A DNA stretch of 64,000 nucleotides from NCBI RefSeq assembly GCF_988243305.1, contig NZ_OZ547136.1. The stretch is one strand, 5' to 3'. Below the pieces are notes generated by a model, which worked only from the letters and a program-made list of their open reading frames with translations, made no database searches and had not been told where the DNA came from. The position numbers and the translations under genes were made by a program. Shown here in pieces: positions 55,264 to 61,820 of this stretch (its first letter is position 1; every line of letters begins with the position of its first letter).

Positions 55264-56346
55264 ATGAAAAAATTAACAGTGGCAATTTCTGCTGTAGCTG
55301 CATCAGTACTGATGGCGATGTCTGCTCAGGCAGCTGAAATTTATAATAAAGACAGTAACAAGCTGGATCTGTACGGGAAAGTTAATGCTAAGCACTATTT
55401 CTCCTCTAATGATGCAGATGATGGTGATACTACTTATGCCCGTCTTGGCTTCAAAGGTGAAACCCAAATCAACGATCAACTGACTGGTTTCGGTCAGTGG
55501 GAATATGAATTCAAAGGCAACCGCGCTGAATCTCAAGGTTCCTCCAAAGATAAAACCCGTCTTGCCTTCGCTGGCCTGAAATTCGGTGACTACGGCTCAA
55601 TCGATTACGGCCGTAACTACGGTGTAGCATACGACATCGGTGCGTGGACTGACGTTCTGCCAGAATTCGGTGGCGATACCTGGACCCAAACAGATGTGTT
55701 CATGACTGGTCGCACCACTGGTGTTGCAACTTATCGTAACAACGACTTCTTTGGTCTGGTTGATGGTCTGAACTTTGCTGCTCAGTATCAGGGTAAAAAT
55801 GACCGCACTGACGTAACTGAAGCTAATGGTGATGGTTTCGGTTTCTCCACTACTTATGAGTATGAAGGATTCGGTGTAGGTGCAACCTATGCTAAATCTG
55901 ACCGCACTAATAATCAGGTTATCTACGGTAACAACAGCCTGAATGCATCTGGTCAAAATGCTGAAGTATGGGCAGCTGGTCTGAAATATGATGCGAACAA
56001 CATCTATCTGGCTACCACCTATTCTGAAACCCAGAACATGACTGTTTTTGGTAATAACCATATTGCCAACAAAGCACAAAACTTCGAAGTAGTTGCACAA
56101 TATCAGTTCGACTTCGGTCTGCGTCCGTCCGTTGCTTACCTGCAATCTAAAGGAAAAGACTTGGGTGCGTGGGGTGATCAGGACCTGGTTGAATATATTG
56201 ATGTAGGTGCAACCTATTACTTCAACAAAAATATGTCCACTTTTGTTGATTACAAAATCAACCTGATTGATAAGAGCGATTTCACGAAAGCATCTGGCGT
56301 TGCTACCGATGATATCGTTGCTGTAGGTATGGTTTACCAGTTCTAA
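55264..56346 (+). CDS. Prophage-encoded OmpC/OmpF-family porin (NmpC/Lc-like)
   Basis: ORF 55204..56346 trimmed to the [23 protein letters not shown] signal peptide; ends in ...VGMVYQF; opposite strand to the late operon. Confidence 0.9.
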
Positions 56347-56482
56347 TTTGATTACTAAAAGATATGTTGCGGGAGGCTTTGCCTCCCCAACATATAAGTG
56401 GCTCCCTCAAGCCACTTCCTTTAGGAGCACAACCTTGCTTCTAACTATATAAACCTTCTGTTATATATTACCCTTTATTTTT

Positions 56483-56510
56483 GGGGGCGTTGCAACGCCC
56501 CATTTTTAAT
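56483..56510 (+). terminator. Intrinsic terminator after the porin gene
   Basis: gggggcgttgcaacgcccc followed by atttttaataatttt. Confidence 0.55.
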
Positions 56511-56534
56511 AATTTTTAGTAAACAATTGGCATA

Positions 56535-56918
56535 TTAATTAGAGTTATTAACAACGATATCCATCTCTAACCGGATATCTAATGCCATTAACATCCCTTC
56601 AATTATGCCCTCAGCCTTCTGTAACCTTTTCCCGATATAACCATCAGAGCAGCAATGCTTACCTGCCAGTGACATGAATGTCATACCGACTACATAATAA
56701 TCTACTAATAAATCGTGCAAATCGCTGTTGTTCTTTTTCAGACGGGCCATGCACCCGCAAATAATCATCGCGTCATCGTCACAACATTGCGGGCGAGATT
56801 TTACTTTTGAAGTAATTAATCCCTTAAAACCGGCGGCAATGGACGACCAGGTCACATCTTCATGATTATTAGCCGCCCACGCTCCCCAGCGTTCGAGAAC
56901 CATCTGAATATCACGCAT
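56535..56918 (-). CDS. Q: Late gene antiterminator Q (QuuD-like)
   Basis: ORF 56535..56933 trimmed to [22 protein letters not shown]...; Cys-rich zinc-binding region. Confidence 0.85.
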
Positions 56919-57976: not shown

Positions 57977-58234
57977 TCACGCAGTAAACTCCTTCACCAG
58001 TATTTCAAACTGGCTTACCTGTCCTTCCAGTTCCTCCACGCAATCCACCAGCTCATCCACCGCCTTTTGTGTACGGTGTTTTGCCTGCAGCAGATCACGA
58101 AGCGCCGGAGTAAGCTGCTTGCGGAGCGTATCTTTTGCCACGCTCGTTTTTTCCATCTGTTCAGCACAACGAAGCATCTCCTGCGCCTGCCGACGAAGTT
58201 GTTCCGGTGAAACAGTGATTGTTCTGTTGTTCAA
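57977..58234 (-). CDS. Hypothetical protein (85 aa)
   Basis: ORF only. Confidence 0.35.
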   Translation of the reverse strand: MNNRTITVSPEQLRRQAQEMLRCAEQMEKTSVAKDTLRKQLTPALRDLLQAKHRTQKAVDELVDCVEELEGQVSQFEILVKEFTA

Positions 58235-59631
58235 AATAAACGCTCCGTTTTACTGCCCGACATGCGGTTATTGCTGTATCTGCGCGGATTGCCCGGCGTC
58301 ATGGGTGTGGAAAGAACCCGGGCACTCTCCTGATCCACAGGCAGAAAATGCCCGTTATGAAAACGCCGGTAAATGGTACCCAGCGTGCCATTACGCTGTT
58401 TCGTGATGTTGATTTCTGCTATGCCTCTGGCCTGAGTTTCCGGGTTGTATACCTCATCCCTGTAAAGCATCAGAATGATGTCGGCATCCGCCTCGATTTC
58501 CCCGGAGTTTTTCAGGTCCGAGTTCATTGGGCGTTTATTGGGTCTGGATTCCACGCCGCGGGAGAGCTGGCTCAGAGCAATCAGCGGAAAACCGCCGGAT
58601 TTTGCCAGGCTTTTAAGTCCCTTTGAGATTTCCCCCACCGCAAGGTCGTGACGCCCCGTGCTGCGGGTTTTAATCAGGCCGAGGTAATCGACCACCACCA
58701 GCGCCGTTTCCGGGTGTTTCATCCGGTGGTGCTTCGTGGTTGCACATATCTCATCAATGGTCAGGTTTGCCTGGTCCACCATCCAGATATTACGCCCCGT
58801 CATTCGTCCCACGCCCTGCGTGAAACGCGCCCAGTCTTCATCTTCAAAACGGGCAACAGACTTAAGACGGGATACCGGCATTCCACCGGCAGCAGACACC
58901 ATACGTTCACCAATCTGGATGTTCGCCATCTCCATGGTGAACAGAAGCACGCCATGCCCCTGCTCAGTCACCTTGTCGATGATGTCCAGCGCAAGTTCGG
59001 TTTTCCCCATCGAAGGACGGGCGGCAATGAATACCAGGTCTCCGGGCTCCATACCGCCCGTTTTTGCGTCCAGTTCATCAATACCGGTCATCAGCGCCCT
59101 GGATTTCTCCAGTCCCTGATTGCGGCATTCAACACGGTCGACCACTTCCGGAAGGACATCATCAATGTGAACCGGCTGAATGACGCCCTTTCCGGTCGAC
59201 AGTGAGGCCATCATGTTCTGCACATCCTTCAGGGCATCCTCGGCTGCTTCACAGGTATACGCATCACGTAAATTCTGTAATGCTTCAGTCAGTGTTTTTT
59301 CTGCATCGCGCAGTGCGGCATTGCGCCGCAACGCTGCGACATAGTGCTCCAGTGAAGACTTCACCCAGGTTTTGCGTCCGGTGTCGGTAATCACCGGGGC
59401 AAGTTCCGGCATCTCATTGCACAGCAGTACGGGGTCAATGACGCCGGATATGCGAGCCTGTCTGCAAATCCCCGCGTAAATATCCCGGTACTGACGCACA
59501 AAAAATACATCCGCCGGAAGTGTGGCCAGAATATCCATCACTTCCGGATCGGCCCCACGCAGAAAAAACGCACCGATGACAGCGCCTTCCAGGTCATCGT
59601 TACGCCATGCCGGGGTGTTCTGGCTGGTCAT
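58231..59631 (-). CDS. DnaB-family replicative DNA helicase
   Basis: 466-aa ORF with RecA-like motifs (AARPSMGKTE; ILMLYRDEVYNPE). Confidence 0.9.
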   Translation of the reverse strand: MTSQNTPAWRNDDLEGAVIGAFFLRGADPEVMDILATLPADVFFVRQYRDIYAGICRQARISGVIDPVLLCNEMPELAPVITDTGRKTWVKSSLEHYVAALRRNAALRDAEKTLTEALQNLRDAYTCEAAEDALKDVQNMMASLSTGKGVIQPVHIDDVLPEVVDRVECRNQGLEKSRALMTGIDELDAKTGGMEPGDLVFIAARPSMGKTELALDIIDKVTEQGHGVLLFTMEMANIQIGERMVSAAGGMPVSRLKSVARFEDEDWARFTQGVGRMTGRNIWMVDQANLTIDEICATTKHHRMKHPETALVVVDYLGLIKTRSTGRHDLAVGEISKGLKSLAKSGGFPLIALSQLSRGVESRPNKRPMNSDLKNSGEIEADADIILMLYRDEVYNPETQARGIAEINITKQRNGTLGTIYRRFHNGHFLPVDQESARVLSTPMTPGNPRRYSNNRMSGSKTERLF

Positions 59632-60536
59632 GCGGCAACACCTCCGATACGAGAACGGTAGCTGGGCCAGTTAAACGACAACCAGTTGCGCCCGCCATCG
59701 GTGATCCTGTCGGCAATCCGGGGACTGATGAACGCCCACAATTCTTCCGGTGAAAGATTGCTGATCAAGATAGTTGGCAAAATACCCTCATACCGGGCAT
59801 TGATAATTTCCTGCAAAATGGCCATTTCAGCCGCACTGCCAAACTGAACGCCGACTTCGTCGACAATCAGCAAATCCAGTGACGCATAATGCTCAATGAC
59901 GTCATCCGCTGTTTTTTCACTGTCATTCCGCCAGCAGTTTTTCACAGCCCGGGTAAGGCGCATCACGTCGGTGATCTCCACACTGGCCAGATAGTTACGG
60001 ATGATGTGTTTTGCCATTGATACCGCCAGATGATTTTTCCCGGTACCGCAACTGCCGGTCATAACAAGACTGGTACCGTTCTCCAGCATATCTGGCCAGT
60101 TCTCCGCATAGCGGCGACAGGCCGCAAGATTTCTGGCTGCGTCAGGATTAACCTCCAGATAATTATCAAACTCGCAGTCCCGAAAACGCAGAGCAATTCC
60201 GGCGTTATCAGTCAGTTCTTCCGCCTTGAGGGACGACAGTTCCATGGTCAAATCACTGGCCTCAGCGATCAAGCAGTCAGGGCAGCATGAAATTTTTTCT
60301 CTGTCCTCGCCATTACGATCGATCCACACCAGTATATGCGTACGATATTTACCGTGTTTTTCGCAATATCCGCGACCTTCACGCATCAGGCAGGAACGAT
60401 AAGGCCATGGCTTTTCGCCCTTCTGAGCAAATGCAATCTCTGCCCGTAACTCATCCATTTCTGCCCGTAACTCATCCATTCGCGCCTGTAGTCTTGTTTG
60501 TTTCTCACGTTGGTCAATCGTCATCATCGCTGTCAC
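59628..60536 (-). CDS. DnaC/IstB-like AAA+ helicase loader
   Basis: 302-aa ORF with Walker A (GSCGTGKNHLAVSMA) and Walker B (LLIVDEVG). Confidence 0.85.
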   Translation of the reverse strand: MTAMMTIDQREKQTRLQARMDELRAEMDELRAEIAFAQKGEKPWPYRSCLMREGRGYCEKHGKYRTHILVWIDRNGEDREKISCCPDCLIAEASDLTMELSSLKAEELTDNAGIALRFRDCEFDNYLEVNPDAARNLAACRRYAENWPDMLENGTSLVMTGSCGTGKNHLAVSMAKHIIRNYLASVEITDVMRLTRAVKNCWRNDSEKTADDVIEHYASLDLLIVDEVGVQFGSAAEMAILQEIINARYEGILPTILISNLSPEELWAFISPRIADRITDGGRNWLSFNWPSYRSRIGGVAA

Positions 60537-60537
60537 C

Positions 60538-61524
60538 TCAGAATGTCAATTTGTTACTGGATTTACCGAATTTGTCAGACATGGCTCCCAGGCCAGCCAG
60601 GACATCGACCTGTCGCTGTCGCCCACCTCCGTGAGCGGCTGGCTGTTGCCAGTAATCTTCGAAGTGACGATCGGGTCCAAAGAACGTCGCAGCCTGCTTC
60701 ACGAACTGTGTGCCGGTATTTCCTGTAGCACGTACCCAGGCGGCATACCGCTTCACGCCATCAAGCATGGTCTCCGGTTTTATTCCCTCCCTGATACGGG
60801 CTTTCCAGGCTTTGAAGGCCGCTGACTTGGAATTGCCACCAGCACGTTTGGGATATTCCTGCCAGGCCTGTTCAAATTCCGGTGAATATTCCTGTCGGGC
60901 AGAACGCGCAGACGCGTCAGCGGATGCATCAATAGTGTTTTTAGTCTCCGTTGTAATCTCTGTAGTAATCTCTGTATTTGTATCAACATTCGGCGTATCC
61001 CCTGTTCCGTTATGACGTCGGGGGGTGTTCCGTTTTAACGTAATAGCTGTATCGCTGATTGCATTATTGCTGTTACTTTCTGGCGAAACAGAAGAAGGTG
61101 TGGTGATGGCCGCAATTGCCTGTGGGTTGATCCCGACAAACAAAATATTGCTGCATTTCACCCCATCGAGCATTTCCACCGTGCGTAAATCCAGAGTAAT
61201 AAACCCTGCATCGCGCAGACGCTTCAGCGCATCTGCGGTTTCCCTTTTCCCGAAACCAAACTGCTCAGCAAACGCCTGGTAGCTTCTTTGCAGTTTGTCG
61301 CCCTGAAAACGCTTGCGATATCCCAGCAACGCTCCGGTGTGCTCATCCCTGACCTCTGTCGGGCGGTACCAGTAAACGATCTCTGAAAGCAGAGCGATAG
61401 CCGTCGCATCCGGACGCCCACTGGGTAGTCGAATATATTTCCACCAGTTCGCAGGTGTAACATTGCCGGAAATATTAATTTGACCAATAGCCATAACTTC
61501 CGGTGTGGGGGCGTAACGGCTCAT
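60538..61524 (-). CDS. Putative replication initiation / replisome organiser protein
   Basis: 328-aa ORF directly upstream of the helicase loader; contains an internal tandem DNA repeat (iteron-like). Confidence 0.55.
   Translation of the reverse strand: MSRYAPTPEVMAIGQINISGNVTPANWWKYIRLPSGRPDATAIALLSEIVYWYRPTEVRDEHTGALLGYRKRFQGDKLQRSYQAFAEQFGFGKRETADALKRLRDAGFITLDLRTVEMLDGVKCSNILFVGINPQAIAAITTPSSVSPESNSNNAISDTAITLKRNTPRRHNGTGDTPNVDTNTEITTEITTETKNTIDASADASARSARQEYSPEFEQAWQEYPKRAGGNSKSAAFKAWKARIREGIKPETMLDGVKRYAAWVRATGNTGTQFVKQAATFFGPDRHFEDYWQQPAAHGGGRQRQVDVLAGLGAMSDKFGKSSNKLTF
60953..60976. repeat. Tandem 12-bp repeat (gtaatctctgta x2 plus degenerate flanking copies), candidate origin iterons
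   Basis: Direct tandem repeat inside the initiator gene, next to an A/T-rich stretch; encodes TEITTEITTE. Confidence 0.5.
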
Positions 61525-61820
61525 ACAACCTCCTTCCGCGGCATGAGAATTGTGTAGCCACGCGCAGGTTGTAGTCGGGCTTTTGCATCAATAGTAAGCG
61601 TTGCAATTTTTCGGATATGAAGATAACCAGCTCTTTCCAGTGCCAGGGTTTCCCTGAATATCGCTTGCTTAGAACAACAGCAGAAATCAGCAAGCACCTG
61701 ATGATCAATAACTCTCTCGCCTTCACCGTCTGAAGAACCCGACATCAAAACACGCAACATAATTAGGCGCTGAATCGGGTTATCGAAAGCACATCCGCAC
61801 ACAAACTGAAAACAGTTCAC
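61521..61820 (-). CDS. Hypothetical protein (99 aa), possible helix-turn-helix
   Basis: ORF only. Confidence 0.3.
   Translation of the reverse strand: MNCFQFVCGCAFDNPIQRLIMLRVLMSGSSDGEGERVIDHQVLADFCCCSKQAIFRETLALERAGYLHIRKIATLTIDAKARLQPARGYTILMPRKEVV

Follow-up and report, generated by a model that had tools for sequence, protein, structure and literature searches.

A candidate replication origin within the initiator gene of a lambdoid E. coli prophage, with a conserved tandem 12-mer

In the initiator gene of a lambdoid E. coli prophage, we found that the linker between the N-terminal DNA-binding domain and the C-terminal module is encoded by an array of 19-bp sites followed by a short tandem 12-mer array, and that this order recurs in relatives of the gene from phages of distant hosts. 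Based on sequence comparison, we estimate a probability of about 0.7 that positions 60940-61044 of the window (the whole 64-kb stretch of DNA analysed here) are the cis-acting origin of the prophage, placed within the linker-coding part of its own initiator gene. Origins inside initiator genes are known, and the one proposed here would be a further, uncharacterised member of that class. The 19-bp half-palindromes at 23-bp spacing are likely the iterons of the initiator, and the 12-mer array is proposed to serve as an unwinding or strand-capture element, in a position that by analogy is that of the A/T-rich unwinding region in ori-lambda.

Anatomy of the initiator gene and its linker

The initiator gene (60538..61524, minus strand) encodes a protein of 328 aa that matched PHROG 270 'replication initiation protein' at E 3e-75; an earlier note on this DNA had placed a repeated 12-bp unit inside this putative initiator gene. 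The protein also matched PHROG 391 'O-like' weakly (E 7e-7), and its PGAP product name is 'LvrA C-terminal domain-related protein'. Searches with the protein found no Pfam family at E <= 0.01 (best HTH_36, E 0.052) and no NCBIfam family, and a PDB sequence search returned weak GntR-type wHTH matches only. The N-terminal DNA-binding domain (aa 1-144; 61092..61524, minus strand) is a predicted winged helix-turn-helix of the DnaD/RepA_N fold, with its recognition helix predicted at aa 93-105. The C-terminal module (60538..60935, minus strand), delimited by megablast and by comparison with other phage initiators, is swapped as a unit among different N-domains and iterons. The protein appears to consist of three parts, namely an N-terminal winged helix, a linker encoded by the candidate origin DNA, and a C-terminal domain that would recruit partners.

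The next gene downstream encodes a DnaC/IstB-like helicase loader (59628..60536, minus strand; Pfam IstB_IS21, E 4e-14, with NCBIfam DnaC-like matches below cut-off) and is followed by a gene for a DnaB-family replicative helicase (58231..59631, minus strand; Pfam DnaB_C, E 6e-74). This order of initiator, loader and helicase is found in a prophage early operon that also includes cI, Rha and Q, with small ORFs and Rha/Ash regulators lying 5' of the initiator gene. The lambdoid prophage that carries these genes encodes a LexA-family repressor as well as a Q antiterminator. The window is E. coli chromosomal DNA, and the initiator gene is 100% identical in E. coli strain S4 (NZ_CP107140), and at least 80% of it is present in 219 of 5,426 complete E. 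coli genomes (~4%); annotated as 'hypothetical' in these genomes, it gains a function and a mapped candidate origin.

Several features of the surrounding DNA varied among the prophages. A 99-aa ORF (61521-61820, minus strand) overlaps the start of the initiator gene and is missing from strain OkiPb01715. This ORF matched positions 3-93 of the 223 positions of PHROG 4617 (E 2e-29), the N-terminal part of another initiator family, with a weak match also to PHROG 391 'O-like', and it may be a separate regulator, or else a DNA-binding domain left behind by a past exchange of modules. In E. coli JNEC-KY204 and UID2404240036, the initiator gene is followed by a PerC-family regulator and not by the DnaC-like and DnaB genes, and homology to the window ends ~110 bp before the 3' end of the initiator gene; these prophages may rely on the host helicase and loader. 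The gene itself is 987 nt long in the window and 993 nt in the commonest variant, and 6 bp (GCTGGY, encoding Pro-Ala in SADASAPARSA) that are present in 6/6 aligned E. coli relatives are missing from the window at ~60910 (between 60909 and 60910).

Within the linker-coding part, repeat search detected two 16-nt copies 23 bp apart on the plus strand (61003-61018 and 61026-61041), which belong to two 19-bp sites. Iteron 1 (61026..61044, minus strand), found as one of an exact pair, has the coding-strand sequence ATTACGTTAAAACGGAACA and aligns with iterons of the form TTACGTTGAAACGTAA in relatives, and iteron 2 (61003..61021, minus strand), 23 bp from it, reads CCGACGTCATAACGGAACA. A degenerate iteron 3 (60981..60999, minus strand; GATACGCCGAATGTTGATA), weak when taken alone, was recognised by its positional match to relatives, the last iteron of loci L161 and L167, CCTACGCCGAAAAGTGAGA, being its positional counterpart. 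As 23 is not divisible by 3, the iteron copies are translated in different frames. The window array thus has two good iterons and one weak iteron, where relatives usually have 3-6, and because there are only two good copies the periodicity over the whole 127-nt window linker was not significant, so that the window iterons are identified by their alignment to relatives. No further iteron copies were found in the 64-kb window.

The 12-mer array (60940..60976, no strand assigned), delimited by TRF and repeat search, comprises two perfect units and one degenerate unit. The sequence GTAATCTCTGTA occurs on the plus strand at 60953-60964 and again at 60965-60976 in perfect tandem, so the 12-bp tandem repeat described in the earlier note is real. 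TRF reported 2.7 copies of period 12 on 60945-60976 (score 50), the extra 0.7 copy being due to the degenerate unit at 60940-60951. On the coding strand the array reads ACAGAGATTACT ACAGAGATTACA ACGGAGACTAAA, and in the low-complexity linker of the initiator the tandem encodes the peptide TEITTEITTE. As for the degenerate flanking copies that had also been claimed, the unit at 60940-60951 was retained, and GTAATAGCTGTA at 61040-61051 was rejected as a third 12-mer, as its 2 mismatches are at chance level and it overlaps the left arm of iteron 1. There was no exact GTAATCTCTGTA elsewhere in the 64-kb window, and at <= 2 mismatches we counted 8 matches in 64 kb vs 2.5 expected. Seven small arrays of similar TRF score lie within the 64-kb window. 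The array is therefore unremarkable within the window alone, and its significance comes from comparison with relatives only. Among the seven is a perfect 21-bp tandem duplication 470 bp off in the DnaC-like gene (60439-60480), where MDELRAE is encoded twice. In related Stx phages the aligned stretches at this place fall short of the query length, being split into two joined pieces or beginning only at query base 56; judged from match lengths, this would fit absence of the duplication there.

The 12-mer array begins 5 bp past the last iteron, at a stability minimum. Positions 60951-60991 are the least stable 40 bp of the initiator gene and of the whole replication operon, and reach the 99th percentile of the window. 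The A/T-rich stretch reported beside the repeat is modest but real (60945-60985, 66% A+T), and this A+T content is far below that of classical unwinding elements. The 19-bp sites have dyad symmetry and the 12-mer has none. A scan near the array found no DnaA box or IHF consensus, and Rfam gave only a chance snoRNA match below threshold on this region.

Conservation among relatives and selection on the DNA

Using tblastn, we found the N-terminal 145 aa of the initiator to be 45-55% identical to 'replication initiation' or 'DnaD-like' proteins in phages of Acinetobacter, Geobacillus, Bacillus, Eggerthella and Exiguobacterium, and a profile search of 1.84 billion proteins with the N-domain gave 2,724 clusters at 50% identity. 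At the DNA level, blastn aligned window 60936-61042, exactly the repeats, with Acinetobacter phages at 74% identity, where the neighbouring protein domain is 47% identical. Acinetobacter phages C62 and qsb1 and Geobacillus phage PT9.1 carry the N-domain, 3-4 repeats of 22-23-nt period and tandem ACAGAGAnTACT. The cleanest layout was seen in PT9.1 (positions 1905-2030 of locus L009), where four 22-bp iterons are followed by three 12-mers. The PT9.1 iteron GGGGTGTGACGTTAGAACGTCA forms a perfect GACGTT-AG-AACGTC palindrome, and the array region is followed by a G39P-like loader and a helicase, in the same order as in SPP1.

To extend this comparison we drew on IMG/VR, from which 160 loci were fetched that yielded 81 unique downstream regions in 25 clusters; a first scan returned 80 near-identical E. 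coli loci, used for polymorphism only, and a second scan was led by the Geobacillus sequence. A tandem 12-mer of 1-4 units was present in 81/81 unique downstream regions. In the 25 clusters, whose N-domains have a median identity of 52%, the N-domain coding part is followed by 2-6 repeats and then by 1-4 tandem ACAGAGAnTACT, so the comparison with related phages proposed in the earlier note upheld the layout. The 22/23-nt periodicity was significant in 22/25 clusters, the window type being excepted over its full linker. All relatives that we examined, including those with protein identity as low as about 40-50%, had kept ACAGAGAnTACT on the coding strand. Among the best 150 representatives of the window's N-domain family, the peptide TE[ITNS]T or TK[ITNS]T occurred in 118, mostly at the expected place, and was in tandem in 74.

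We then compared the 53 12-mer units of the 25 cluster representatives codon by codon. ACA was found in 53/53 units and ACT in 45/53, and the GAG codon had G at its first position in 49/53 and at its third position in 52/53. Only position 8 is free to vary; it is the second position of its codon, and its changes give Ile, Asn, Thr or Ser. For comparison, the commonest codon made up only 41% of uses (maximum 59%) at conserved four-fold codons in the N-domain, where conserved Glu is mostly encoded by GAA. In the 12-mer, synonymous positions are fixed though the hosts differ in G+C content, and the base that changes the amino acid is free, which is the reverse of what protein-level constraint or neutrality would give. 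This pattern indicates that selection at the 12-mer acts on the DNA and not on the peptide. It is a clear instance of synonymous sites constrained by an overlapping DNA element, which has to be reckoned with when evolutionary rates are estimated or phages are recoded. The same pattern contradicts the notion that slippage alone gave rise to the 12-mer, in DNA coding for a disordered, low-complexity linker, and that as DNA it is without function. Its period is indeed a multiple of 3, with TEIT repeats encoded in the linker, its copy number varies, and the perfect 21-bp duplication in the neighbouring DnaC-like gene indicates that slippage occurs here, but with invariant synonymous positions beside a free amino-acid-changing position we consider slippage highly improbable as the explanation.

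Polymorphism within E. coli pointed in the same direction as selection on the DNA. Among 47 E. coli gene variants, third positions segregated at 1/35 sites in 60940-61044 vs 62/144 sites in the N-domain (Fisher p about 1e-6), and third-position pi was zero or near zero in windows over about 61044-60940, a dip in diversity that recombination history could inflate. Near-identical E. coli prophages had between 1 and 4 copies of the 12-mer.

We also compared the iterons with the predicted recognition helix. The iterons are small palindromes centred on an A-tract, for instance TTACGTT-GA-AACGTAA and related cores, and across 25 representatives residue 2 of the helix partitioned perfectly with the iteron core. 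Arg accompanied the core TACGTT-NN-AACGTA (ACGTT..AACGT) in 13 representatives, Gln (or RKQ) accompanied CCCCATTTCAAAAGGGG in 7, and Lys and Ile accompanied TTACCCAAAAAGGTAA and AGTTATAAA, respectively, in 2 each. As this covariation follows clades, it is not phylogenetically independent and is suggestive rather than proof.

The 12-mer in other initiator families and exchange of modules

An exact IMG/VR scan for two tandem units returned at least 120 loci, and all those among the matches listed were in frame within initiator-like ORFs, about 150-190 codons from the start. Again among the matches listed, at least 44 loci had an N-domain of the window type, at least 43 belonged to the 'NEAIxLQQ..YW' family and at least 19 to the 'RP[IV]A[FY]..LSQxxYW' family, with at least 8 loci carrying variants of those three types and at least 6 being truncated ORFs. 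Nearly all matches listed showed an upstream 22-24-nt periodicity and family-specific palindromes such as GGTCAAAATGACC. When the 'NEAIxLQQ..YW' set was fetched without reference to the motif, the unit was found within one mismatch in 51/70 unique regions, and the rest had mostly recognisable degenerate units. The 'O' gene of E. coli phage Stx2_EH2201 combines a third N-domain type with its own iterons and four 12-mer units. The 12-mer tandem thus follows different iterons in at least two initiator N-domain families other than that of the window.

Being identical across differing DNA-binding domains and iterons, the 12-mer is unlikely to be the specificity site of the initiator, and from these comparisons it is probably not the specific docking site of the protein. 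The earlier note had likened the repeats to the iterons of a lambda-like intragenic origin; by comparison with relatives the likeness of layout is strongly supported, whereas the 19-bp sites fit the role of iterons better than the 12-mer does. We nevertheless weighed a reading in which the 12-mers themselves are the iterons, bound by the initiator as double-stranded sites, and the 23-bp repeats are accessory. All N-domain families that bear the 12-mer share a conserved helix motif ending in YW (LSEIVYW, LQQICYW and LSQALYW), a common protein feature that could read a common DNA sequence, and the spacing between the last iteron and the array is constant at 5 bp. Yet origin specificity cannot come from a 12-mer that stays unchanged while the iterons and wHTH sequences before it differ considerably. 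The 12-mer also lacks the dyad symmetry of the 19-bp sites, its copy number drifts between 1 and 4 even in E. coli prophages that are nearly identical, and the recognition helix covaries with the iteron core and not with the 12-mer. Therefore we regard this reading as unlikely and keep the 19-bp sites as the likely iterons.

Comparison among E. coli phages located a module boundary directly past the candidate origin. Megablast against phage genomes covered only 60400 to 60934-60975, and the C-terminal 130 aa are common to the initiators of the window, phiP27, PhiR49_2 and Stx2_EH2201, the latter three each having their own N-domain and their own iteron array at the same place. As the C-domain is common and the N-domain and iteron array differ, N-domain and repeats travel together. 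In phiP27 L17 (positions 2010-2200 of locus L172), another HTH N-domain is accompanied by intragenic repeats CCGTCAGAATCTGAA with two copies of AAAACATGATCCGCAAG, and in PhiR49_2 O (positions 2030-2210 of locus L173), again with another HTH N-domain, the intragenic repeats are GTGCAnnnATTCACCAGGTG with three copies of GAACCAGTCA. ACAGAGAnTACT was found in neither phiP27 L17 nor PhiR49_2 O, indicating that some intragenic origins of this gene neighbourhood do without the 12-mer.

The homology break with other E. coli phage initiators falls at or beside the 12-mers (60934-60975), and the 12-mer is common to at least three N-domain families and to different C-domains. Both observations would suit a sequence kept for a role other than initiation, either as a recombination linker for module swaps or as an mRNA signal, and since the orientation of the 12-mer relative to the gene is fixed, DNA and RNA roles are inseparable by sequence alone. 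A recombination linker, however, brings no immediate benefit to its carrier, so that letter-perfect retention across distant hosts would be hard to explain, and the mRNA role found no Rfam family match. Moreover, the 12-mer keeps a constant 5-bp spacing to the last iteron and lies at the stability minimum, both of which speak for a function in the origin itself. We accordingly give a non-initiation role only a small chance and treat the 12-mer as a proposed origin element below.

Comparison with known origins and proposed mode of action

ori-lambda lies in the middle of O, where two iterons and the A/T-rich region are enough for unwinding, and lambda O binds the A/T-rich single strand (PMC7466680). 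The candidate origin of the prophage resembles it in having dyad-symmetric iterons midway along the initiator gene, with the coding part of the N-domain on one side and that of the C-domain on the other, in having an easily melted region on the C-terminal side of the iterons (60951-60991, though 66% A+T), and in the exchange of N-domain and iterons as one module. The lambda iterons tCCCTCaaaacGAGGGa (PMC7466680) also resemble the type-B iterons of the window's family, CCCCATTTCAAAAGGGG. Differences are that the prophage initiator has no match to Phage_rep_O, the Pfam family of lambda O, that lambda uses P and the host DnaB whereas the prophage has a DnaC-like loader and a phage DnaB, and that ori-lambda has a merely A/T-rich tract where the prophage has a sequence-conserved 12-mer tandem.

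Plasmids of the RepA_N type, such as pSK41 and pTZ2162, offer a second parallel. In pSK41 the Rep boxes are central in rep, ori doubles as the coding sequence of the linker, and the protein has a host-specific C-terminal domain; an experimentally replicating pPR9/pSK41 chimera indicated that N-domain and repeats travel together (PMC5703833). The iterons of RepA_N replicons are described as inverted repeats that converge on an A-tract (PMC7145576). The prophage gene likewise has a central candidate origin with inverted-repeat iterons converging on an A-tract, but its initiator is outside the RepA_N family, with no match to PF06970 even at E <= 10. The plasmid search with the N-domain matched no staphylococcal plasmid, and pPR9 is therefore an analogy only.

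In SPP1, oriL lies within gene 38 and has direct repeats and an A/T-rich unwinding element (PMC6316719). The prophage is similar in its candidate origin within the initiator gene, with repeats and a proposed unwinding element. SPP1 has gp39 as loader and gp40 as helicase, and it was not among the matches listed in the tblastn search with the N-domain. SPP1 gp38 is also proposed to stall forks at oriR (PMC6316719), and the prophage sites might similarly be regulatory, serving autoregulation, copy control or an oriR-like fork barrier, with replication starting elsewhere in the prophage. More A/T-rich DNA is indeed available at 56200-56700 and 63700, but the 64-kb window has no other iterons or 12-mers and the layout matches the experimentally proven intragenic origins of lambda, pSK41 and SPP1 oriL, which makes a purely regulatory role quite unlikely beside an origin at 60940-61044.

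The 13-mers of oriC and RK2 illustrate how the exact sequence, number and arrangement of such repeats can matter for opening and firing (PMC5043065). The prophage 12-mers resemble those of oriC and RK2 oriV as short tandem repeats adjoining the presumed initiator sites. They differ in having another sequence with only 66% A+T, in lying inside a coding region, and in being conserved across phages of distant hosts, whereas the 13-mers are conserved within one replicon type.

From this anatomy we infer how initiation might proceed. Dimers of the N-terminal winged helix would occupy the three half-palindromic 19-bp iterons, whose 23-bp spacing corresponds to two helical turns, the bound complex would distort the DNA and open the adjoining 12-mer array, and the exchangeable C-domain would recruit the phage DnaC-like loader and DnaB helicase. 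Because the 12-mer is kept as an exact sequence and not merely as A/T-rich DNA, it would be read sequence-specifically, most likely as one separated strand. For DNA opening by initiators without ATPase activity, the 12-mer is of further use in being recodable, which lets the DNA be changed without changing the protein.

Throughout the families compared, the ACAGAGAnTACT tandem lies a few bases after an iteron array of 22-24-bp period and in the same reading frame. We tentatively suggest, at somewhat less than even odds, that it is a new sequence-specific origin element in several winged-helix initiator families of Gram-negative and Gram-positive phages, and possibly of plasmids. If the element is shared in this way, then its reader, an equally tentative part of the same proposal, would be a partner common to all systems, which could be a conserved initiator surface on one melted strand or a replication protein present in all hosts, for instance primase or helicase. 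As a post hoc observation, one strand of each 12-mer unit contains CTA and TTA and the opposite strand CTG, triplets at which the primases of Firmicutes and E. coli are known to start. In the searchable literature, whose coverage is incomplete, we found no description of the conserved 12-mer, and searching for it as text returned unrelated primers only.

The signature of a winged-helix N-domain, iterons of 23-bp period and a ACAGAGAnTACT tandem, in this order, finds candidate origins in thousands of phage genomes. The N-domain was also encountered on plasmids of Vagococcus (16 kb), Protochlamydia (at the record start), Nostoc, Deinococcus and 'Candidatus Megaera', where some copies are annotated as 'DnaA-like'.
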